This document shows, one piece after another, positions 2,128 to 29,959 of a stretch of DNA of 30,169 bases. Each line of letters opens with the position of its first letter. Within the stretch, counting starts at the first letter, position 1. Source of the stretch: Verrucomicrobiota bacterium (GTDB lineage: Bacteria > Verrucomicrobiota > Verrucomicrobiia > Chthoniobacterales > UBA6821). The stretch covers positions 1-30,169 of the forward strand of contig WBXG01000015.1 of the NCBI GenBank assembly GCA_008932965.1. Direction: 5' to 3'. The notes under the pieces are model-generated. The model searched no databases and was not told the origin of the DNA. It worked only from the letters and a program-made list of their open reading frames with translations. The translations under genes and the position numbers were made by a program.

Positions 2128-3072
2128 ATGATTGCTTTTTATGTCCATGATCTAAGTCCTTTTCTTATCCAGTTTGGAAGTGAATTTGGTCTTCGTTGGT
2201 ATGGGCTCGCCTATATTCTGGCTTTTCTTTTTGGAACGCTGCTCTATCGGCACTTGGCCAAGCGTGGATATTCTGTGCTAACTCCGGATCAAGTGACCGA
2301 TTTTATTACCTGGGGTGCTCTCTTTGGTGTGGTTATTGGTGGACGACTTGGTTACATGCTTTTCTATGATCTAGATGCATTTTTACAAAACCCATTGATT
2401 TTTTTTCGTGTTTGGGAAGGGGGAATGTCTAGTCATGGAGGAATTATAGGCCTCGCTCTTTATTCTCTTTGGTATGCTCGACGTCATCATCTCTCGTGGC
2501 TCAACTTAGGAGATAATCTTGTTGTTGTTGCTCCTATTGGACTCTTCCTAGGACGTTGTGCCAATTTTATTAATGGAGAATTGTTTGGGCGTCCCACAAC
2601 TGTTTTTTGGGCTGTGCAATTTCCTAAGGAACTCGCTTTTCTTCCTCCTGGTTTTGTGGTGGCAACACTGCAGGATACATCAGCCATAAATCCTAAGTTT
2701 TGTACGATTGATGCGGTAGCAGAGGGAGTGCACTCCTCTCCTCAGCTCCACGACTACCTTGCCACTATCCTTACACCCCGTTATCCATCACAATTATTGG
2801 AAGCATTTTTAGAAGGGGTGGTGCTCTTCACTCTTCTCTGGATGCTGCGAACCCGCTGCCGTCTCCCCAATGGTATTCTAACAGGAGTTTTTTTTATTGC
2901 TTATGCGTTACTGCGTATTGCTGGAGAAATCGTTCGCGAGCCCGATGCGCCACTTATTGGTTGCTTCACCCGTGGAGAATTTTTTTCTTTCTTTCTGATC
3001 TTAATTGGAATTGGTTTTATTGCTGCGGCTAAGCTTCAATTACAAAAGACGCAAAAGACAAGTAATGGGTAA
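2128..3072 (+). CDS. lgt: Prolipoprotein diacylglyceryl transferase
   Basis: 314-aa polytopic ORF with RWYGLAYILAF, GGRLGYMLFY, WEGGMSSHGG and GRCANFINGELFGR. Its stop TAA (3070..3072) lies inside the left arm of H element 1. Confidence 0.9.
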   Translation: MIAFYVHDLSPFLIQFGSEFGLRWYGLAYILAFLFGTLLYRHLAKRGYSVLTPDQVTDFITWGALFGVVIGGRLGYMLFYDLDAFLQNPLIFFRVWEGGMSSHGGIIGLALYSLWYARRHHLSWLNLGDNLVVVAPIGLFLGRCANFINGELFGRPTTVFWAVQFPKELAFLPPGFVVATLQDTSAINPKFCTIDAVAEGVHSSPQLHDYLATILTPRYPSQLLEAFLEGVVLFTLLWMLRTRCRLPNGILTGVFFIAYALLRIAGEIVREPDAPLIGCFTRGEFFSFFLILIGIGFIAAAKLQLQKTQKTSNG

Positions 3073-3176
3073 TGGGTGAAAAATAGCACTCTTGGTAAAA
3101 TTGACCTTATATGATGCGGCCATTTTAGTTCGAGCTTGCCGCAGGTAAGAAACTACACTTATTACTCATTACTTTT
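3055..3176. repeat. H element 1 (inverted GTAATGR heptamer arrays)
   Basis: Left arm AAGACAAGTAATGGGTAATGGGTGA (3055..3079). The right arm CACTTATTACTCATTACTTTT (3156..3176) is weaker and degenerate. Confidence 0.7.
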
Positions 3177-3258: not shown

Positions 3259-3747
3259 ATGAATATTCGATTGCTGCACGAAGAGGATTGGAGGAGCTGG
3301 AAAGCTTTTAGACATCAAACATTGATTGATTTTCCGTTAGCTTTTTCTATCTCAATGGACGAGGAGGAAAGATTATCAGACCAACAGTTTAAAGATTGGA
3401 TTACAAGAAATACGATCTATGGATCATTTCTGGAAGATCAGATGATTGGATCTGTCGGATTTTTTAAGCTTGATTCCTCTAAAGAGCAGCATCGTGGTGT
3501 TCTCTTTGGAATGAATGTTTTACCTGCCTTTCAACGTCGTGGTCTTGCTGGAGAGCTAATGACGATCGTTCTCAAACATGCAAAAGACCATGTGATGCAG
3601 CTTCATTTAACTGTGGTTAGCTCTAACGAAACAGCAGTACGGCTCTACCAGCGTCATGGATTTAAGATTTATGGGACGGAACCCCGCTCTTTAAAAATAG
3701 AGGGTCATTTTTATGATCATCATCTCATGGTATTATTTTTTAATTAA
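3259..3747 (+). CDS. GNAT-family N-acetyltransferase
   Basis: 162 aa with the acetyl-CoA pocket motif QRRGLAGELM and C-terminal LYQRHGFKIYG. Confidence 0.8.
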   Translation: MNIRLLHEEDWRSWKAFRHQTLIDFPLAFSISMDEEERLSDQQFKDWITRNTIYGSFLEDQMIGSVGFFKLDSSKEQHRGVLFGMNVLPAFQRRGLAGELMTIVLKHAKDHVMQLHLTVVSSNETAVRLYQRHGFKIYGTEPRSLKIEGHFYDHHLMVLFFN

Positions 3748-3784: not shown

Positions 3785-4492
3785 ATGCTTGAACCTATTG
3801 CTCAACTCCTTATTTTACAAAACACCGATCAGCATCTTCGGGAAGTAACTCAAGCACTTCTTCAACTTCCGCAAGAAAAAATTTCCTGTGAGAAAGCGCT
3901 ACGAGATGCTGATGAGAAGCTTCAATCTATTCGCTCATCTGAGCACCAGATAGAAAGAGAAATTAAAAAAAATGAAGGCGATATTCTTGCAAAGCAAACA
4001 CAGATTGCACGCTATCGCATTCAACAAATGGAGACTCGAAAAAATGAAGAGTATGCTGCCTTCAATCATGAGATTGCTCTTGGAGTAAAAGCCATCACGG
4101 CCTTGGAGGAACAGCAACTCGAGCTCATGGAGAAATGTGCATCACTCCAACCTGAGATTGAGAGAGCTCAAGAAGTCCATGCCATTGAACACAAACGCGT
4201 GAATGCCATCCTTGGTACCATCGATGGTCGCTCAGAAAATTTACTGGTCCGACAACGAGAGTTACAGAATGTGCGGCCTACTCTCACGCTCCCAATTGAC
4301 GAGGATATTTTAGATCGTTATGAGCGACTTTTTAAAAGTAAAAATGGAATGGCCGTTGCCGCCATTGAACATGGTGTCTGCACAGGATGTCATATGCAGA
4401 TGACGACTCAAACGATCCTCTCAGCCAAAGCAGAAAAAGAGATCATGATCTGCCCTCAATGTGGGCGCTTCCTTTATACGGAAGAGGACTAG
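3785..4492 (+). CDS. Coiled-coil C4 zinc-ribbon protein (COG1579-like)
   Basis: I chose the ATG at 3785 because the ORF-track start at 3713 overlaps the GNAT gene. A long heptad-rich region is followed by CTGCHM...CPQCGR. The stop TAG (4490..4492) lies inside the terminal CTAG of R183 copy 3. Confidence 0.7.
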   Translation: MLEPIAQLLILQNTDQHLREVTQALLQLPQEKISCEKALRDADEKLQSIRSSEHQIEREIKKNEGDILAKQTQIARYRIQQMETRKNEEYAAFNHEIALGVKAITALEEQQLELMEKCASLQPEIERAQEVHAIEHKRVNAILGTIDGRSENLLVRQRELQNVRPTLTLPIDEDILDRYERLFKSKNGMAVAAIEHGVCTGCHMQMTTQTILSAKAEKEIMICPQCGRFLYTEED

Positions 4493-4671
4493 CCCGTATA
4501 TTTCATCTCGATTTTGCTGCGGCTTGCGAACACCTAATGGATACTGTGTTGAGCTCGAAGTTTTCCTCTGGCGGTAGGGGGGCCTACAGCCCGTATCACC
4601 TCGCCCGCCATGTACTAATAAGCCTTGCTTCCCGTCCTCCGCAGTAGATTAGTGTGAAATATCCGGGCTAG
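4489..4671. repeat. R183 copy 3 (183 bp), filling the whole spacer between two convergent genes
   Basis: CTAGCCCGTATATTTCAT...GTGAAATATCCGGGCTAG. The arm is a diverged type A (GCGAACACCTAATGGATACTGTG). The apex hairpin is GGCGGTAGG-GGGG-CCTACAGCC. Confidence 0.9.
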
Positions 4672-6674
4672 ACCACTTCGACAGGGCATTCTGGGAGCGC
4701 TTTGAGAAAAGCTTTTCCATACGGTTTGTGAATGACTCGACTATCGAGAATGACAATGGTTCCCCGATCTTGCTTGTTACGAATCAAGCGGCCCACCCCT
4801 TGGCGTAATTTAAGAATAGCCTCGGGCAACGAGTAATCACGAAAGCCATCACCTCCCGTAGCCACAATCTGTTCAAAACGTGCCTCGGTAAGCGGATGAT
4901 CAGGTGTTGCAAAAGGGAGTCGTGTGATCATCACATTGGAAAGGGCCTCTCCTGGAATGTCCACTCCCGTCCAAAAGCTATCTGTGCCGAAAAGCACACA
5001 GGGCTTACCAGAGCGAAATTCCTCGAGCATCCTGGAGCGAGAAAGACCACCTCCTTGAACAAGCAAATTCCATTTTTTCTTATCAAAAAAGGGTTTTATC
5101 ACCGAGGCAATGCTTTGCATGCTTCGGTAGCTTGTAAAAAGAACAAACGTGCGTGCATCGCTCTGCTCGGTAAAATGGAGAATCCATTTTTTTAATGCCT
5201 CTTCATAACCGGGATGACGTGGGTCTGGCATTTGGCCCACAAGATGAATACGCATCTGTTTTTCATAATTAAAAGGAGAGCCAAGCTCTAATCCCTCTAC
5301 CTCGAAGGCACCAATACGCGAGCGAAAATAGTCGAGCTGAGGAGCTCCTGTTGAAAGTGTAGCACTCGTAAGGATAGCACTTGTTTTTTTTGAAAAGAGA
5401 TATTTTTGAAGATGGGATCCCATGTCAACGGGTGCTGCACGAAGTGTGCAGGAGGGGGTTATACGTCCGCTTTTTTCAATCCAATACACATGCTCTTGAA
5501 GATGTTGTTCTAAAAAAGAGAGTAGGCTCTCACTGCTTTGAGAGAGCTGTTTGGCAATATCGTTGAGTTCCACTTGGAGTGGTTCCTCCAGAGGAGCTGC
5601 GATGATCTCGATTAAAATCGCAAGACGATTGAAGCGCTCTATGAGTGCATCCTTGTTTTTTAAAAATGGCAACTGCTCCGGACTACGAATCCGAAATTCA
5701 CGTCCTTGTTTAAAATCACATTTAGAAAGAAGTGATTCAAAAAAACGATCACTCTCCTCGAGAAGCTCGGTGGTTGCTGTGATTGCTTTGGTGGCCTTGA
5801 GTTGTTGAAAAATCCCTTTGTGAGTTCTGGGATGATAGAGGCGATGGAGTAATTGTTTGAGTCCATACTGCGAAAGAGTAATTCCAAAGTGATGCGAGGC
5901 AATCGTCTCAATTGTATGAGCCTCATCAAGGACCACAAAATCATGAGGGAAAAGATATCCGGTCTCCGTTTCACTAGGATCCTCTAAGAGTGTAAAGAAA
6001 AGAGTATGGTTCAGGATTAAAACATCAGCGCTAAGGGCACGTCGTCGGGCTGCTTGATAAAAACAACGTGGATCCTTTCCACACGTTTTTGGAGAGCAGA
6101 GAGAACGATCGCTGCACACTTGAGCCCAAACGTTAGGATCAGGCTCTGGGGAGAGAGAGCTGAGTGTACCATCCCGTGTTGTCTCACTCCAGAGGCGTAT
6201 CCTTTCTAATTCGGGTAAGACATCACCGGAAAAAAGATCCTGGGCATAATGCAGGGCACGATTAAAACGTGCAGGACAAAAATAATTTTGACGTCCTTTG
6301 AGTAGTACAGCTTCAAAAGGAATCCCAAGAATTTTTTGCAAAAGAGGTAAATCCTTATAAAGGAGTTGTTCCTGAAGGGTGATAGTATGGGTGCAAATAA
6401 CCGCTTTTCGCCTGGAGGCAACCGAATGAAGAACAGCTGGAATCAAGTAAGCAAGCGATTTCCCAACACCTGTTCCTGCTTCGACCACAAGATGCGTCTC
6501 CCCTTCAAGAGCTTTGGCAATAGCATGGGCCATTTGAAACTGTTCTGGTCGAGTTTCAAATCCAGAAATTGTAGAAAGCAACCCCTTTTCTCCAAAAATG
6601 GCCACTACCTGATCCACAAGCGAGCTCCCCTTGGAGGTCGATTCGTGTAAATCTATTTTTTTAATAGTGTTCAT
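4668..6674 (-). CDS. dinG: DinG/Rad3-family ATP-dependent DNA helicase
   Basis: 668 aa with Walker A EAGTGVGKS, DEAH box VLDEAH, a Cys-rich Fe-S-type region (FCPARF...CSDRSLCSPKTCGKDPRC) and TSATLS. The stop codon (reverse complement of 4668..4670) lies in the right CTAG of R183 copy 3. Confidence 0.85.
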   Translation of the reverse strand: MNTIKKIDLHESTSKGSSLVDQVVAIFGEKGLLSTISGFETRPEQFQMAHAIAKALEGETHLVVEAGTGVGKSLAYLIPAVLHSVASRRKAVICTHTITLQEQLLYKDLPLLQKILGIPFEAVLLKGRQNYFCPARFNRALHYAQDLFSGDVLPELERIRLWSETTRDGTLSSLSPEPDPNVWAQVCSDRSLCSPKTCGKDPRCFYQAARRRALSADVLILNHTLFFTLLEDPSETETGYLFPHDFVVLDEAHTIETIASHHFGITLSQYGLKQLLHRLYHPRTHKGIFQQLKATKAITATTELLEESDRFFESLLSKCDFKQGREFRIRSPEQLPFLKNKDALIERFNRLAILIEIIAAPLEEPLQVELNDIAKQLSQSSESLLSFLEQHLQEHVYWIEKSGRITPSCTLRAAPVDMGSHLQKYLFSKKTSAILTSATLSTGAPQLDYFRSRIGAFEVEGLELGSPFNYEKQMRIHLVGQMPDPRHPGYEEALKKWILHFTEQSDARTFVLFTSYRSMQSIASVIKPFFDKKKWNLLVQGGGLSRSRMLEEFRSGKPCVLFGTDSFWTGVDIPGEALSNVMITRLPFATPDHPLTEARFEQIVATGGDGFRDYSLPEAILKLRQGVGRLIRNKQDRGTIVILDSRVIHKPYGKAFLKALPECPVEVV

Positions 6675-6717: not shown

Positions 6718-6763
6718 TTAGCCAGGATATTTCATCCTAATCATCTGCGGAGACGGGAAAGTC
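6718..6763. repeat. R183 terminal fragment overlapping the 3' end of dusB
   Basis: TTAGCCAGGATATTTCATCCTAATCATCTGCGGAGACGGGAAAG closely matches the reverse complement of the copy-3 right end (CTAGCCCGGATATTTCACACTAATCTACTGCGGAGGACGGGAAG). Confidence 0.75.
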
Positions 6764-7741
6764 AGATGGAGTCTGCAAAATGAGGGCGGGGCTAGCCTCA
6801 AGAGTTGAAAAAAGTTCTTCTAACTCGATGAGTGAAGAGACACAGGATATTTTTTCGCGTAAGGGGCGTGCTCCTGGAAAGCCTTTGGTGTAGGCCATAA
6901 GACGGGCACGCATGCTAGAGATAGCAAACGCTTCGTTTCCTTTAAAGGCAATTTCTTCCATGCAGTGGCGTCGAATCAGATCACAGCGCTCTTGTAATGT
7001 TGGGGGAATGAATTCCTTGTTACCATCGAGGGCAGCATGAATTTCAGCAAAAATCCACGGATTACTCATAGCTGCACGTCCAATCATGAGTCCTGCCACT
7101 CCTGTTTGTATCAAGTTTAACGCATCCTTTCCTGAGGTAATATCACCATTGCCAATGACAGGAATAGAAACTGCGGTTACGACTTGGGCAATCACCTCCC
7201 AGTCTGCTTTTCCAGAATAACCTTGTGCCTTAGTGCGACCATGGACGGCAAGCCGCTTGATTCCACTTTCTTCAAGGAGGCGCCCTGTGGTGGTGGCATT
7301 GATGGAATGCTCATCCCAACCGATGCGAATTTTTGCAGTGACGGGAAGCGGGGCTACTGCCTTAACCACAGCTACAGCGACTTTTTCTAATGTGGGACAA
7401 TCACGAAGTAAAGAAGAGCCCCCATGACGACAGACTACTTTATTAGCAGGACATCCAAAATTAAGATCAATAAAATCAGGCTGTACCCATTCAACGACCT
7501 GGCGCGCTGCTTCTGCAAGGCGCTCGGGATCTCCTCCAAAGAGTTGAACGCCGAGTGGACGCTCTTCCTCTGTGAACTCAAGGTAGCGTCGTGTTCTCTC
7601 ATTTTTATGCATGATCCCATCAGCAGAAACAAACTCTGTCGTAAGAACCGTGGCCCCTTGTTCTTTGCAAATACGACGAAAAATCGAATTTGTTACTCCT
7701 GCCATCGGAGCTAGGAAGAGAGGGAGTGGCATTAAAGACAT
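6737..7741 (-). CDS. dusB: tRNA-dihydrouridine synthase
   Basis: Motifs LAPMAGVTN, DLNFGCPANKV and AVHGRTKAQ. The start is uncertain: ATG at 7741 or 7732, or TTG at 7750 as in the ORF track. The last 8 codons (DFPVSADD) lie in the R183 fragment. Confidence 0.88.
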   Translation of the reverse strand: MSLMPLPLFLAPMAGVTNSIFRRICKEQGATVLTTEFVSADGIMHKNERTRRYLEFTEEERPLGVQLFGGDPERLAEAARQVVEWVQPDFIDLNFGCPANKVVCRHGGSSLLRDCPTLEKVAVAVVKAVAPLPVTAKIRIGWDEHSINATTTGRLLEESGIKRLAVHGRTKAQGYSGKADWEVIAQVVTAVSIPVIGNGDITSGKDALNLIQTGVAGLMIGRAAMSNPWIFAEIHAALDGNKEFIPPTLQERCDLIRRHCMEEIAFKGNEAFAISSMRARLMAYTKGFPGARPLREKISCVSSLIELEELFSTLEASPALILQTPSDFPVSADD

Positions 7742-8382: not shown

Positions 8383-8490
8383 GAGCCTAGATATTTCATG
8401 CTGATGTGTTGCAAGGAGCTGCAAAGCCTGCCTTACCTCATCAGCCTTCACCGCCTCCTCGTCACGATCAATATGAAATATCCAGGCTAG
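8383..8490. repeat. R183 copy 4, a short (~108 bp) internally deleted variant
   Basis: GAGCCTAGATATTTCATGCTGAT...CCGCCTCCTCGTCACGATCAATATGAAATATCCAGGCTAG. The right half aligns with the right halves of copies 2 and 10. The central box and apex are missing. Confidence 0.8.
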
Positions 8491-12621: not shown

Positions 12622-12805
12622 CTAACACGAATATTTCAGACTAAATCTATTACGGCTTGTGGAAAGCTCTATTGTTACTGCGTTGGTCTCGAATGGTGAT
12701 TTGGACGGTATGTACTCCTACAGCCTGGCATCACATTCCTTTGCTCGCCTTCTGCTAATAAAGCTTTGTGCGGCTCCTCATGACATTTGAACTGGAACTA
12801 TGAGG
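12622..12805. repeat. R183 copy 5 (type-B arm), with a degenerate right end
   Basis: The left part CTAACACGAATATTTCAGACTAAATCTATTACGGCTTGTGGAAAGCTC...CTGCGTTGGTCTCGAAT matches the left arm of copy 8. The right terminus is eroded, so the end coordinate is approximate. Confidence 0.7.
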
Positions 12806-12827
12806 TTCCATATTTAGATATCACTGC

Positions 12828-14404: not shown

Positions 14405-14588
14405 CTAGCCCGAAGATTTCATGCTGATTCTGCTGCGGCTTGCGAACACCTGATGGATACTGCGTTAGCTTCGAATTGCTCCTCGGGCAGTATGTAACAC
14501 ACAGCCGTCGTCGCAATCCATCACTTTCCTTGTCTGCATCAGGATTCGCGTCGCCTCGCAACAAACCAGTATGGAATGTGCGGGCTAG
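14405..14588. repeat. R183 copy 6 (type A, 184 bp)
   Basis: CTAGCCCGAAGATTTCATGCTGATTCTGCTGCGGCTTGCGAACACC...CAGTATGGAATGTGCGGGCTAG. The core 14443..14528 matches copy 7 at 82/86. Confidence 0.92.
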
Positions 14589-14614
14589 CCCGATTCTCAC
14601 GCTGCAAGGGAAAA

Positions 14615-15009: not shown

Positions 15010-15193
15010 CTAACCCGCATATTTCATACCGATTCTGCTGCGGCTTGCGAACACCTGATGGATACTGCGTCAGCTTCGAATTGCTCCTCGGGCAGTATGA
15101 AACATACAGCCGTCGTCGCAATCCATCACCTTCCTTCTCTGCATCAGGATTCACAGCACCTCGCGACGAACCAGTATGAAATATGCAGGCTAA
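15010..15193. repeat. R183 copy 7 (type A, 184 bp)
   Basis: CTAACCCGCATATTTCATACCGATTCTGCTGCGGCTTGCGAACACC...CCAGTATGAAATATGCAGGCTAA. The right terminal repeat contains the ATG at 15183. Confidence 0.92.
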
Positions 15194-16337: not shown

Positions 16338-16358
16338 AATAGCTGCTTTGGCACTCTA

Positions 16359-16541
16359 TTAACCCGCATATTTCATACTAAATCTATTACGGCTTGTGGA
16401 AAGCTCCTTATTACTGCGTTGGTCTCGAATTGTGATTTGGGCAGTATGAGACATACAGCCCGAGGAGCAATTCGAAGCTGACGCAGTATCCATCAGGTGT
16501 TCGCAAGCTGCAGCAGAATCAGTATGAAATAGGCGGGTTAG
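16359..16541. repeat. R183 copy 8 (183 bp), a chimera of a type-B left arm and an inverted type-A arm
   Basis: Positions 16458..16508 are a perfect 51-nt reverse complement of copy 7 positions 15043..15093. The left arm matches copy 5. Termini are TTAACCCGCATATTTCAT...ATGAAATAGGCGGGTTAG. Confidence 0.92.
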
Positions 16542-18107: not shown

Positions 18108-18150
18108 AGTGAAGAGATGATAGCACACATTTTTAATTTCAAAAGGTCAG

Positions 18151-18334
18151 ATTGCCCGGATATGTCACACCAATCACCTGCGGAAGTCGAGAAGCCTGTT
18201 GAATGCTACGTTGAGCTCGAAGTCTTCCTCGGGCAGTATGTACTCATACAGCCGTTGTCAGACTTCGTCACTCGTCTTGCCCCATAAGCCATCGCGACCT
18301 CTTCGTCACGAGCAGTATGAAATATGCGGGTTAA
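18151..18334. repeat. R183 copy 9 (type-C arm, 184 bp)
   Basis: ATTGCCCGGATATGTCACAC...GCTCGAAGTCTTCCTCGGGCAGTATGTACTCATACAGCC...CAGTATGAAATATGCGGGTTAA. Confidence 0.9.
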
Positions 18335-18431
18335 CCATCAGGATTTTTTAGAAGGTTTTTTTAAAAGGATGGCTCTCTCTTATTGGAGATTTTCTTTTTT
18401 AAAGTCCATTTTTAGATTACAATTTGAAGTT

Positions 18432-21875: not shown

Positions 21876-22058
21876 CTAGCCCCCCTATTTCACAATCAAT
21901 CTATTACGGAAGCTGGGAAGTCAGATAGATGCTGCGTTGAGCTCGAAGTCTTCCTCGGGCATTAGGGACTTCTACGCCCTGCGTCAAAATACGTTTCTGC
22001 CTTATTCCATCAGCCTTTGCGGCTTCCTCGTTACGATCGTATGAAATATCCGGGCTAG
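21876..22058. repeat. R183 copy 10 (183 bp)
   Basis: CTAGCCCCCCTATTTCACAATCAATCTATTACGG...GCTCGAAGTCTTCCTCGGGC...CGTATGAAATATCCGGGCTAG. Confidence 0.9.
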
Positions 22059-22139: not shown

Positions 22140-24452
22140 ATGTCTTACGCCCGTATTCTCATAGACCGTACCGAAGGCACCGAACTTGACTATGCCATTC
22201 CAGATGAGCTGCAACAGCGCGTTGAAGTAGGGGTACGGGTCCGTGTTCCATTACGCAAAGCCATTGTGATGGGAGTGGTGCTTTCGTTGCACGACAAAGT
22301 TGCCTTTTCCAAGGTCAAAAAAATCATAGAAGTGATCGATTACCGTGCTCTATGCCATGAGGGAGAAGAGGGATCGGGCACATTGGAAACCTCACAGGAA
22401 AGACCATTAATTTCTCCTAAGATTATGAAGCTTGCCTATTGGATGGCCGACTATTACTGCACCTCCCTGGATGCCGTTTTGCGGTCGTTAGTTCCAACAA
22501 CAATTCGTAACAATTCTCTTACAGAAAAAAAAGTAAGGATGGCTATTCTACTCAAAACACCTTCTCCAACATTTCTGCATGCTCTTGGCGTACGTGCCCC
22601 CAAACAAAAAGCGTTACTCGAGCTCTTGCTCTCCTCCAAGGAGAAAATGAGCGCTGCCAAGCTCCTTAAACAAACAAAGGCAACAGGGAGTTCCTTACAT
22701 GCATTGGTTCAAGAAGGATGGATTTTTCTTAAGGAAGAATCGGTTTCACGTGATCCCTTTTCTCATGAGGAACTATTGCCAAGTCCTATCCCTAAACTCA
22801 ATAGCGATCAATATCGGACAGTAGCTCTCATTAATGAAGAACTCCTGCGGGTAGTAGCATTAGAAAAAAAATCAGAGCCTTTTATTTCACTTCCTTTTTT
22901 ACTTCATGGAGTCACAGGAAGCGGTAAGACAGAGGTCTATTTGAGGGCTATGGAAAAGGCTCTCGCACTTGGAAAATCTGTTCTTATTTTAGTTCCTGAA
23001 ATCGCACTCACCCCACAGACAGTAGAGCGCTTCCGAGCACGCCTTGAGCATACTCAAGAAAAAAAACTCATTGCAGTCTTACATAGTCATCTCTCGGAGG
23101 GAGAACGTCATGATGAGTGGTTGCGTCTGCATCGAGGAGAGGCGCGGATTGTGATAGGAGCAAGAAGTGCGATTTTTGCTCCATTGCAAGATTTAGGTCT
23201 CATCATTGTGGATGAAGAACATGAGACTAGTTACAAACAAGAGGAGACCCCTCGCTATCATGCTCGAGATGTAGCTGTCATGCGTGCCCGCTATGAAGGA
23301 GCTGTCCTAGTGCTTGGCAGTGCTACCCCCTCAATTGAAAGCATGAACAATGTGCACCTTGGGAAATATGCTCTCCTAGAACTTCCTAAGCGTGCTGATC
23401 ATCAACGTATGCCACTGGTGCGAGTGATTGATATGCGATTGCAAGGAAGGCAGCAGGGGGCAGATGCTATTCTCTCCTTTTTGTTGCGCCAGGCGATAGC
23501 AGATCGATTAGAACGCTCCGAGCAGGTGATTCTTTTTCTCAATCGTCGAGGATTTTCTAGCGCACTGTTATGCCCTCAATGTGGTACCGCTTGCTCATGT
23601 CCTAACTGCAGCCTGTCACTCACATTTCATCGAGCGAGCCAGCGACTCATTTGCCATCTCTGTGGCCATATGGAAAAGCCACCGACGACATGTCCTAGCT
23701 GCCACGAAGCTGGTATTTTATATTCAGGAGTAGGAACCCAGCGTGTGGAGGCAGCCGTGCAGCAAGCTTTTCCAACGGCACGGTGTTTTCGTATCGATGC
23801 TGATAGCATGCAACGCAAAGGATCCTACCAAGAAACCTTCGATCGCTTTAGAAAAAAACAGATCGATATTCTTATTGGGACACAGATGATTGCAAAGGGA
23901 CTTGATTTTCCTAATGTCACCCTGGTTGGTATCATTAATGCCGACACAACCCTCCATGCTCCTGACTTCCGTGCAGGTGAGAGAACATTTCAACTCTTGA
24001 CGCAGGTTGCAGGCCGCGCAGGTCGGGGAGATCGGGAAGGAGAGGTGATGATTCAAACATACACCCCAGAAAGCCCTTCTATTCAATTTGCACGGCATCA
24101 CGATACCTCTGGATTTTTCGAGCAAGAGATGGCTTTGCGACAGCAGTTTGAATACCCACCCTTTCAAAAAATGATTTTGATTCAATTAAGGGGGGTCGAT
24201 CAAGAGCACGTCGCCTTACATAGTGCTACTTTAAGAAAAAACCTGCGGCTTGCCCTTCCAGATTCTATCAACATTGGAGAGGCAGTCCCAGCATCACTGG
24301 AGCGTGCACATGGACAATATCGTTTTCACATTGCTCTTCACGGACCCTGCTCCAAAGCTATTAAAATAACGATGTGCAAGGTCATTGCCTCGTATGAATT
24401 TCCCTCTAGTGTTGTGATCACTATCGATGTCGATCCTCAATCCCTCATGTAG
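22140..24452 (+). CDS. priA: Primosomal protein N' (replication restart helicase PriA)
   Basis: 770 aa with Walker A GVTGSGKTEVY, the IVDEEHE box and a Cys-rich zinc insert (CPQCGTACSCPNCSLSLTFH..CHLCGH..CPSCH). Confidence 0.9.
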   Translation: MSYARILIDRTEGTELDYAIPDELQQRVEVGVRVRVPLRKAIVMGVVLSLHDKVAFSKVKKIIEVIDYRALCHEGEEGSGTLETSQERPLISPKIMKLAYWMADYYCTSLDAVLRSLVPTTIRNNSLTEKKVRMAILLKTPSPTFLHALGVRAPKQKALLELLLSSKEKMSAAKLLKQTKATGSSLHALVQEGWIFLKEESVSRDPFSHEELLPSPIPKLNSDQYRTVALINEELLRVVALEKKSEPFISLPFLLHGVTGSGKTEVYLRAMEKALALGKSVLILVPEIALTPQTVERFRARLEHTQEKKLIAVLHSHLSEGERHDEWLRLHRGEARIVIGARSAIFAPLQDLGLIIVDEEHETSYKQEETPRYHARDVAVMRARYEGAVLVLGSATPSIESMNNVHLGKYALLELPKRADHQRMPLVRVIDMRLQGRQQGADAILSFLLRQAIADRLERSEQVILFLNRRGFSSALLCPQCGTACSCPNCSLSLTFHRASQRLICHLCGHMEKPPTTCPSCHEAGILYSGVGTQRVEAAVQQAFPTARCFRIDADSMQRKGSYQETFDRFRKKQIDILIGTQMIAKGLDFPNVTLVGIINADTTLHAPDFRAGERTFQLLTQVAGRAGRGDREGEVMIQTYTPESPSIQFARHHDTSGFFEQEMALRQQFEYPPFQKMILIQLRGVDQEHVALHSATLRKNLRLALPDSINIGEAVPASLERAHGQYRFHIALHGPCSKAIKITMCKVIASYEFPSSVVITIDVDPQSLM

Positions 24453-26528
24453 CTATTCCTCAATAGGAAAAAAGGGGTCGTCTTGGAGGCTCTCTTCTTC
24501 ATCAGAATGAGAATGAATAAGTGACTGGCGGTCCTTATTTTTACTAACAATCTGTTCTTCGATAGATGAGTAGAGGGTATAGTGACCGGGATATTCTTCC
24601 TGGAATTTCCTCCAGCGGTTGGAAAGAGCAGTTTTTTTTTCCAATAATTCTTGGAAAAGAGATTCGTTTTCCTCTTCCATGCTTACATCATCGATGTAGG
24701 ACAAAGCAAAGTCCTGGGATGAAGCTTTTTCACATAAAAACTCCTCATGCCTGAGCTTCAGATAAGGTAACAACGCAAGAGTGAATGTTGAGGTAAAGTC
24801 ATTGATCGGACAAGGAGTAGCTAAAACAGGTGAGGTAGCTCTAGAGGGCTTGAAGAATACCAAACCTTTAGTTGAGCGATCAGTAGTCTTAGAATCCCTT
24901 ATTGGTTCTTCACGAGAATAGTCATCAAAGAGTTGTTCCATCTTTAAATCACTCTTGGAATAGAGCTCTTCTGCTTGATTAGAAGCCTTAACAAGCTTAT
25001 TCCAAGCTTCCTCTGAGTTTTGTTTTAATGCCTCATCACGGAAAAAAAAGAGATCATGAATAGCATCACAGTAATGGGTGATCTGTTGCCAAGAGGCGAC
25101 ATGTTTTGTTGCCTCTTGTTTTGTTGCCTCTTGATAACTGTTCTCTATATGAGTGATGGGTCGAGGGCGATCATTATATAAGGATGCTTGGAACCGTTGG
25201 AAATCAGCTTTGTCCTCCAGGATTGTTTGATGATGCTCTAGAAGAAGGATTGATTCCTCATAACAGTCATTCCAATCTGTGGTACTAAGTGTCCGAGATG
25301 CTTTTCTCAGAAAACTGTTAAAATTTTTGCTAGCCTCTAGAAATTGAGGGTTTGATAATTTCTTGGTCTGAAAGCTTACTGACTGGCTAGAATATTCATC
25401 CTTTGAGGAAGATGAAGTGCTATCAATAAGGATAGCGGATGAGCGTCGAGAACCAGAGAGTCCTTGATTAGTAGCACTTAACGAGGTTTGCCCGCTTCTT
25501 TCATCCTCATTAACGAAGAAATCTAGGAAGCCAAATGGATCCTGCGTTGGATTTTTATCTCGACTTAGGTGGTAGGGACTCACAGAGCCCTTACTAAACA
25601 TGCTCGCCTCCCTTTCCTCATCAGCCTTCTCATTACAATCAAATCGCTCCCTTAATGACTTGAGGCGTCTCCAAGAGCAAAGAGCATGCTCCAGTGTTGT
25701 TTTTCTCTTTATTTGAGGACTGTCTTCATGATCCCGACTATCGTAATTGAGATGAGAATGCTCTATTATTAGAGGTGCATCACTTTTTCTACAAGAGGGG
25801 CTCCAGTACCACGCTCCAGCTGTAATCACTCCAATCAATACTATGGCTTCAATAGGATCATCCCACGAAGAAGCACTGGTTGTTTTCTCCTCTTTTTCAC
25901 AATCTAATGATTCTTCTTTCTGGCTTATGGAAAAGCGAATCTGATTCGAATAAAGTGATGCATCTATTTGGGTGATCTCCTGGGAAGGGTTGGATTGAAG
26001 AAAACAATGTAGGGATAGCAGAGGAGAGCTAAAACCACTTATCCATGCGCCATAGTATTCTGCAGTCCTCGTGTTTAAAAATAATACTGAATCCAAGCCC
26101 GATCTTTCATGCTGATCACCTCCGAAGCCACAGAGATCAGATGAATGCTGTGTGAGATTTCCGTTTTGAATGGGGGAATATACATGCATACAGCCTCCCC
26201 TTGCCATGCTCGCTTGCGTTGCCTCTGGAGCCTGAGAAGACTCTTCGTTACGGTCACTTTGTAATATAGGGTCTAGGCCTGATTGAACCTGGCTTTGGTA
26301 GTGATAGTGACCTGGTTCTCCAATCCGAAAGATGGCCTCGATGCCCACATACAGATCATCACTACAGGCCGCTTGAGTCATGTCATTAAGAAAGAGTGTG
26401 TAGGAGGTTGTAGTAATCAATCTTGATTTGGAAAGAGGATCTTCCGAGAGAAGAAGATGATTGATCGATAAAAAAATAATTCCCAAGAAAAGTGATTTAA
26501 AAAGGAAATTAAAATTCAAGGACCTCAT
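24453..26528 (-). CDS. Hypothetical single-pass membrane protein (about 691 aa), orphan
   Basis: I prefer the ATG at 26528 (MRSLNFNFLFKSLFLGIIFLS, signal-like) over the TTG at 26552. A central TM segment (AIVLIGVITAGAWYW) is followed by a long Ser/Asp/Glu-rich tail. I recognise no family motifs. Confidence 0.6.
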   Translation of the reverse strand: MRSLNFNFLFKSLFLGIIFLSINHLLLSEDPLSKSRLITTTSYTLFLNDMTQAACSDDLYVGIEAIFRIGEPGHYHYQSQVQSGLDPILQSDRNEESSQAPEATQASMARGGCMHVYSPIQNGNLTQHSSDLCGFGGDQHERSGLDSVLFLNTRTAEYYGAWISGFSSPLLSLHCFLQSNPSQEITQIDASLYSNQIRFSISQKEESLDCEKEEKTTSASSWDDPIEAIVLIGVITAGAWYWSPSCRKSDAPLIIEHSHLNYDSRDHEDSPQIKRKTTLEHALCSWRRLKSLRERFDCNEKADEEREASMFSKGSVSPYHLSRDKNPTQDPFGFLDFFVNEDERSGQTSLSATNQGLSGSRRSSAILIDSTSSSSKDEYSSQSVSFQTKKLSNPQFLEASKNFNSFLRKASRTLSTTDWNDCYEESILLLEHHQTILEDKADFQRFQASLYNDRPRPITHIENSYQEATKQEATKHVASWQQITHYCDAIHDLFFFRDEALKQNSEEAWNKLVKASNQAEELYSKSDLKMEQLFDDYSREEPIRDSKTTDRSTKGLVFFKPSRATSPVLATPCPINDFTSTFTLALLPYLKLRHEEFLCEKASSQDFALSYIDDVSMEEENESLFQELLEKKTALSNRWRKFQEEYPGHYTLYSSIEEQIVSKNKDRQSLIHSHSDEEESLQDDPFFPIEE

Positions 26529-26639
26529 AAAAATAATAAAATAGGATATCAATTAACCTTTTTTGCTAAAATACAAGTGTCAATTTGCGTAGTGACACAA
26601 TTTTGGCGATTTTGTAGCAATCATTCCAAAAAAACCAAT

Positions 26640-29939: not shown

Positions 29940-29959
29940 CTATGAAATATCCGGGCTAG
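29940..29959. repeat. Solo R183 right terminus
   Basis: CTATGAAATATCCGGGCTAG is identical over 18 nt to the right terminus of copy 10. No recognisable internal R183 sequence lies upstream. Confidence 0.7.

Follow-up and report, generated by a model that had tools for sequence, protein, structure and literature searches.

A probable IS1380-derived miniature transposable element supplies the stop codons of two convergent genes in an uncultured Verrucomicrobiota bacterium

We analysed a 30,169-nt stretch of DNA (hereafter the window) covering positions 1–30,169 of contig WBXG01000015.1 of assembly GCA_008932965.1, from a Verrucomicrobiota bacterium of lineage UBA6821, and focused on a short repeat, R183 copy 3, in which two convergent genes end. 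On the plus strand, a gene encoding a zinc-ribbon/CT398-like coiled-coil protein (235 aa from the conserved start; PF02591 and PF24481) occupies positions 3785–4492, its longest open reading frame (ORF) beginning at 3713. Facing it on the minus strand, a DinG-like helicase gene (668 aa; PF13307 and PF00270) occupies 4668–6674. Judged by these two proteins, the host belongs to an uncultured freshwater lineage of Chthoniobacterales (‘Spartobacteria’) within the Verrucomicrobiota. The zinc-ribbon stop codon, TAG at 4490–4492, lies inside the left flanking CTAG (4489–4492), a copy of the target site, and the stop codon of the DinG-like gene, a TAG that bases 4668–4670 give on the minus strand, lies inside the right flanking CTAG (4668–4671). 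Between them, on the plus strand, sits the 175-nt body of copy 3 (4493–4667), bounded by terminal inverted repeats (TIRs) CCCGTATATTTCA (4493–4505) and TGAAATATCCGGG (4655–4667). With both CTAGs the element measures 183 nt (4489–4671), starting CTAGCCCG and ending CGGGCTAG.

The spacer between the two genes is copy 3 alone (CTAGCCCGTATATTTCAT...GTGAAATATCCGGGCTAG), with zero additional bases. An earlier reading of this DNA, made from the sequence only, had placed both stop codons at these positions within CTAG, had described the element as filling the spacer exactly and had collapsed it to GAAGAGGACTAGACCACTTCG; all three statements are correct readings of the sequence. Copy 3 is non-coding: the sole ORF that overlaps it is a spurious 86-aa frame, and a transposase gene is absent. 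It is a mosaic, in that a different R183 subfamily gives the best match for each of its three parts (left arm, middle, right arm). The same sequence is present in 8/8 other fetched contigs of the same species, from several samples, and copy 3 is therefore genuine and fixed, not an assembly artefact. It is old and has not moved recently. That both ends of a single element act as stop codons is uncommon and was observed only here. Elsewhere in the window, TAGCTA at 24450–24455, which the sequence-only reading had pointed out as a comparable arrangement, does hold back-to-back stops, those of a PriA-like gene (plus strand) and a 699-aa ORF (minus strand).

Copy 3 belongs to a repeat family with around 12 copies or fragments in the window, as detected by BLAST and an nhmmer profile; their summed lengths amount to roughly 6% of the sequence. 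Members are 105–261 nt long and gene-free, and share the TIRs CCCGNATATTTCA/TGAAATATNCGGG, with a variable last base (C/T) after CCCGNATATTTCA. Internal identity between copies is 60–90%, and many copies match themselves on the opposite strand. Nearly all members are flanked by CTAG or another YTAR tetranucleotide, the types being CTAG, TTAA and CTAA. No transposase is encoded in the window. Outside it, R183 is present in at least 7 related species, and occurs among species whose zinc-ribbon and DinG proteins are 70–90% identical to those of the window (loci L009/L016/L097, L017, L018/L100, L114 and L116).

Besides copy 3, the plus strand carries copy 1 (1–227, full extent −37 to 227), a variant of 261 nt that the window enters part-way through, probably at an assembly break; copy 2 (1872–2058), in a spacer between msrA and lgt that is likewise occupied in the relatives L009 and L016; and further copies at 12622–12800, 14405–14588 (flanks CTAG/CTAG), 15010–15193 (flanks CTAA/CTAA, a non-palindromic direct repeat), 18150–18335 and 21876–22058 (flanks CTAG/CTAG). 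A copy on the minus strand, at 16358–16541, is a near-perfect palindrome. Reduced forms comprise a truncated left-arm fragment (6718–6776, plus strand) that coincides in part with the 3′ end of Dus, a 107-nt short derivative that retains both ends (8384–8490, plus strand) and a solo end fragment at 29941–29959. We considered a ‘split element’ around dus-h173, with a left end at 6719 and a right end at 8489, and dropped it because 8384–8490 has two ends of its own and is complete as a short copy.

Copy 1 gives direct evidence that R183 units come and go. It is present in the window and in one other contig (L132, 1746–2010) and absent from 8 distinct contigs of the same species. The occupied allele reads ...GAGCGGG-CTAG-CCCGAATATTTC...(261 nt)...ATATGCGGG-CTAG-CCTCCAAC..., with CTAG at both ends; the empty allele, in all 8 contigs, reads ...TAGTTGAGCGGG-CTAG-CCTCCAAC... 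(GCGGG-CTAG-CCTCC), with one CTAG. The surrounding DNA is otherwise identical. Because the alleles differ solely by the element, a whole R183 unit has been gained or lost precisely at its ends, and because the empty site holds one CTAG, the rule that removal of an element leaves a single CTAG is calibrated. Together with the TIRs and YTAR flanks, this empty site bears out the earlier claim that R183 is transposon-derived and has a CTAG-type target. Of the two arms of copy 1, one shares 97.6% identity with the copy at 15010 and the other 92.8% with the neighbouring copy; the boundaries of the element carry the 9-nt repeat GCGGGCTAG. No additional strain polymorphism was seen among copies around rpsN, which are fixed in 9/9 contigs, and intergenic alignments of the window with Deming_bin.170, whose spacers are too diverged, gave no further occupied/empty pairs.

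To find the parent transposon, we scanned viral contigs for TARCCCGNATATTTCA. Most hits were single chance matches; paired inverted matches occurred in two contigs, L175 and L188. L175 holds a 1.59-kb element encoding a 447-aa protein that matches NF033539, the IS1380 equivalog, at 390 bits and PF13701 at 527 bits, and L188 holds an 860-nt internally deleted copy of an L175-type element. The closest annotated relatives, found in plasmids, are the insertion sequences (ISs) ISPosp7, ISPa33 and ISMaq4, all flanked by CTAG on both sides. ISPosp7 begins CTAG-CCTGAATATTTCAC... and finishes ...GTGAAATATGCGGG-CTAG, its right end reading CTAG-CCCGCATATTTCAC inwards; ISPa33 and ISMaq4 have CTAG-CCCGGATTTCTCATGA at either end. 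IS1380 elements in ISfinder have ends that start CC and repeats of 4–5 bp. The R183 TIRs likewise start CC and match those of the three named members. Because the same ends flank IS1380 transposases, R183 is an IS1380-family derivative and not an IS630 one, and the IS630-like assignment made from the sequence has to be given up. Parentage by IS5 was also considered and rejected, as the best NCBIfam match of the L175 protein is the IS1380 equivalog and PF01609 is secondary at only 62.6 bits. The full-length elements and R183 have nearly the same TIRs and CTAG or other YTAR flanks on both sides, as do the deleted copy L188 and a metagenomic IS copy, L234. They differ in scale and content, the ISs being 1.56–1.62 kb long with a transposase of 430–450 aa and R183 a gene-free repeat, and in host, which is proteobacterial for ISPosp7, ISPa33 and ISMaq4; the autonomous ISs with R183-type ends come from organisms other than the host clade.

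The flanks also bear on how much of the target is duplicated. CTAG and TTAA are palindromic and hence uninformative on this point. Non-palindromic flanks are direct in three cases (CTAA/CTAA at 15010 and at L188, TTAG/TTAG at L234) and inverted in one (CTAA/TTAG at L175); the remaining cases differ at one base. This three-to-one distribution favours a putative 4-bp duplication of YTAR over the duplication of TA alone that the sequence-only reading had assumed.

The junction itself can be seen without the element in two relatives, in both of which the zinc-ribbon gene is followed by DinG on the minus strand: L096 (zinc-ribbon 76–78% and DinG 82% identical) and L136 (80% and 83%). The L096 junction reads GAC TGA gcctataggctatagc CTA, with a 16-nt spacer, and the L136 junction GAT TGA, 171 unrelated nucleotides and CTA; TGA is the zinc-ribbon stop in 4/4 in-clade relatives. 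The convergent arrangement is shared by the window, L096 and L136, and the most parsimonious reading is that the ancestor of the clade already had it. The junction was thus there before the element, which entered it and was not its origin. The collapsed empty site had been expected in relatives, and neither junction shows it. The proposal of a single insertion into a CTAG already shared by both genes is formally contradicted by these two loci. Since the relatives are distant (76–83% protein identity), an unsampled intermediate with overlapping stops is possible.

Elsewhere in the clade the zinc-ribbon gene has other partners. In Deming_bin.170 (L018/L100, 83%) it is followed by h173 on the plus strand, and the h173-dus-dinG block has the opposite orientation to that in the window. 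In a sister lineage (L009/L016, 88–90%) it is followed by amidohydrolase/OprB, with DinG (90%) elsewhere in the same metagenome-assembled genome as L016, adjoining lptFG (L097). In the outgroups L017, L114 and L116 (about 70%) its downstream neighbour is gcpE on the plus strand. The neighbour is thus a different gene in nearly every related species (DinG, h173, amidohydrolase, GcpE), and the 3′ flank of the gene (window 4492, L009 4708, L018 535, L096 6384, L017 2453, L114/L116 6708) is a rearrangement hot spot within an R183-rich clade. Solo R183 left ends lie 1 base past the zinc-ribbon TAG in L017 (2454–2495, tandemly duplicated) and L116 (6709–6750), reflecting either a repeatedly hit site or a very old remnant. 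A possible R183 remnant after the zinc-ribbon gene in L009 (z 4.9, reached by 3/300 shuffles) is absent from L016 and was set aside as a weak lead, and a similarity between the L136 spacer and the sister-species spacer was not significant. A palindromic motif, CTATAGCC/GCCTATAGGC, recurs at L096 6368–6383 and L100 9317–9333, including the unoccupied zinc-ribbon|DinG junction, and may be another small repeat family.

Our preferred explanation, which we regard as likely, is that R183 is an IS1380-derived MITE (a non-autonomous miniature transposable element with inverted repeats) that targets YTAR, and that copy 3 lies in the ancestral junction with its CTAG flanks serving as both stop codons. 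An IS1380-type DDE transposase, supplied in trans, would recognise the CCCGNATATTTCA TIRs and insert the element at a palindrome-like YTAR (CTAG, TTAA or CTAA/TTAG), which would be kept on both sides, most likely through a 4-bp duplication. A copy that landed on a stop codon, or was later trimmed to one, would restore the stop and be harmless.

The exact fit of copy 3 needs at least two steps, because every relative sampled combines a TGA stop with a spacer. We infer two routes, to each of which we give a little under an even chance. Along one, the spacer would have been lost first, leaving overlapping stops in one CTAG, with the zinc-ribbon gene ending at the TAG within C-TAG-AC of the DinG stop region, and R183 would then have inserted there. 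Along the other, R183 would first have entered the TA of the DinG stop, after which the TGA and residual spacer were deleted or two copies recombined. The insertion position of this second route would be common to the sister species, but with the opposite arm type. The mosaic structure of copy 3 is compatible with recombination, yet such structure is common in the family.

Several results weigh against the preferred explanation. The predicted empty site GGACTAGACC was not found: the sampled same-species population has no empty allele of copy 3, and a scan of JGI metagenome contigs for GGAAGAGGAC-N2-32-GACCACTTCGAC returned 13 matches, all 13 of them unrelated chance hits. The L096 and L136 junctions have separate stops and share no CTAG. 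A tblastn search of ~1.26 Mb of fetched host-clade loci detected no IS1380 gene. Palindromic CTAG flanks leave TA and 4-bp duplication unseparated, and the CTAA...TTAG flanks of L175 fit TA duplication better. The copy 1 polymorphism, finally, could be a precise slippage deletion between the 9-nt repeats and not an insertion.

Two other histories of the junction deserve comparison. If an IS630/Tc1-mariner-type MITE had made one insertion into a CTAG already shared as overlapping stops, with duplication of TA, one would expect the CTAG/CTAG flanks of copy 3 and the inverted CTAA...TTAG flanks of L175, the pattern to be expected where TA is duplicated and the ends are complementary. IS630 is known to favour and duplicate the TA within CTAG (Tenzen and Ohtsubo 1991, cited in PMC2170065), and the window has a zero-spacer convergent junction at 24450–24455. 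Against this stand the IS1380-family transposases between R183 ends, the three direct non-palindromic 4-mer flanks, which favour 4 bp, and the unoccupied junctions, which show TGA and spacers of 16 or 171 nt where a shared CTAG should be. The IS630 part of this model is largely refuted, and we judge the whole very improbable. Alternatively, the junction may have been made by recombination, through inversion or deletion, between two R183 copies, one at each stop, leaving copy 3 as a chimera. The five different neighbours of the zinc-ribbon 3′ flank among relatives fit such a history, as do R183 sequences at both ends of the h173-dus-dinG inversion between the window and Deming_bin.170, the subfamily mosaic of copy 3, the solo ends after the zinc-ribbon stop in L017 and L116 and the R183 at the DinG stop in L097. 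The R183-free convergent junctions of L096 and L136 show instead that the junction predates the element, and most R183 copies are mosaics. Roughly one intergenic spacer in two holds an R183, which makes the association with breakpoints a weak one. We hold this second history to be quite unlikely.

Copy 3 might also have been kept for a function, as a bidirectional transcription stop, an mRNA-stabilising hairpin or a structured RNA. It is the only 3′ untranslated sequence of both genes and is predicted to form a long hairpin on either strand (−64.4 kcal/mol, z −3.2, on the plus strand; −59.7 kcal/mol, z −2.4, on the minus strand); MITE hairpins have been proposed to act in these ways in other bacteria (PMC10969869). 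The element contains no U-tract terminator, and a terminator and promoter scan of copy 3 returned nothing except one weak promoter-like match spanning its left end. Rfam searches gave no match, whether at the gathering threshold or with E ≤ 10, covariation over 17 copies pairs only the terminal repeats, with a consensus energy of −1.08 kcal/mol, and copies are equally frequent in start/start, start/stop and stop/stop spacers. All strains carry an identical copy 3, but this identity is uninformative on selection because the flanking DNA is equally invariant. Retention for function is thus unlikely in our estimation, and a role for the hairpin at the 3′ ends of both mRNAs is speculative.

Stop codons fall in R183 ends at several other places as well. 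Among non-redundant loci, 5 of 57 R183-type ends supply the terminal TAA or TAG of an ORF of at least 80 codons, when ~1.7 would be expected from the 3.05% of all TAA/TAG triplets that are such stops, a modest enrichment. The TTAG flank of a 105-nt R183 contains the DinG stop TAG in the sister species (L097), and the TTAA flank of another R183 contains the stop TAA of PTS-EIIA (L009/L016). In the window, the last ~13 residues of the minus-strand Dus gene (QTPSDFPVSADD) and its stop are encoded by bases 6737–6776 of the R183 fragment, and this C-terminal tail is missing from the Dus of relatives. Because YTAR holds TAA or TAG on both strands, an insertion at the TA of a stop codon regenerates the stop.

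Other features of the locus touch on the family. The predicted ATG starts of an M24 peptidase gene (15183) and a 601-aa ORF (18324) each fall within ATATGC in the right terminal repeat of an R183; R183 may donate these start codons, or the true starts may be farther downstream. At three right ends (spacers 228–254, 12801–12827 and 14589–14614) 26–27 nt separate the element from the stop codon at which the next gene, on the minus strand, ends. Two of the three spacers open with CCCG straight after CTAG, which suggests remnants of older abutting copies and nested insertion at the element’s own CTAG. Within the 699-aa ORF (24453–26552), which has no Pfam domain, weak R183-like profile matches at 25488–25632 (36 bits) and 26098–26267 (14 bits) may represent in-frame R183-derived coding sequence. 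Just beyond the left end of the window (L001 203–354, L127 3320–3470), a 150-nt unique segment between two R183 copies contains a small hydrophobic ORF (MKKINSLLIVFFTVLILSVALFLG...), whose frame extends into the next copy. The lgt stop region (3058–3085) has a different kind of repeat: a G-rich heptamer, (TAATGGG/TGATGGG)n, is repeated in tandem from the last lgt codons, with 2 units in the window and L006 and ~17–25 in other strains of the species (L001 3199–3547, L002, L003). The length polymorphism between lgt and GNAT is this variation in heptamer copy number, and its interpretation as an R183 insertion was rejected.

R183 resembles several known systems in part. Correia/NEMIS and ERIC-type MITEs are hairpin-forming intergenic repeats of 100–200 nt with TIRs and flanking TA; they are often co-transcribed, are sometimes fused to gene ends and have been linked to rearrangements. 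They differ from R183 in sequence, host phylum and parent IS family, and bacterial MITEs in general have been reviewed (PMC10969869). The fusion of a MITE to gene ends with donation of stop codons is a known kind of event and not a new mechanism. IS630 prefers the TA in 5′-CTAG-3′ and its elements are flanked by TA (PMC2170065), and IS630 and its MITEs share the reconstructed empty site with R183; the transposase family differs. IS5 targets 5′-YTAR-3′ and produces a 4-bp duplication (PMC5009759). R183 has the same target motif and probably the same length of duplication, and the transposase found between R183-type ends is that of IS1380. The R183 terminal repeats are, we presume, unrelated to IS5 ends. 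IS630 and IS5 are functional look-alikes only. The eukaryotic transposon piggyBac duplicates a TA-centred palindromic 4-bp target, TTAA, and its ends start CCC. IS1380 transposases are regarded as its distant prokaryotic relatives (PMC10140906). At 2–3 kb, piggyBac is much larger than R183 and is known to excise precisely.

We found no description of IS1380-derived MITEs in the literature searched, and the R183 family appears to be new. A more far-reaching reading is possible, although we hold it only tentatively: R183 would be an undescribed IS1380-MITE family with piggyBac-like duplication of a TA-centred palindromic 4-mer (CTAG/TTAA), by which copies could lodge within stop codons and so give housekeeping genes stop codons, C-terminal tails and possibly start codons; the copies may also reshuffle the zinc-ribbon 3′ flank, and the copy 1 polymorphism could be precise excision in the manner of piggyBac.

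The IS1380 parentage is the most interesting by-product of this analysis. It moves the family from IS630 to IS1380 and adds an apparently undescribed MITE lineage to a transposon family best known for moving resistance genes and as a distant relative of piggyBac. For the host, the element illustrates how mobile repeats in very high number can be borne by a compact genome: because the target and ends of the element read as stop codons on either strand, an insertion at the end of a gene is silent. R183 copies also break metagenome assemblies and mark breakpoints of synteny within the clade, and knowledge of the family therefore aids the assembly and annotation of uncultured Verrucomicrobiota.

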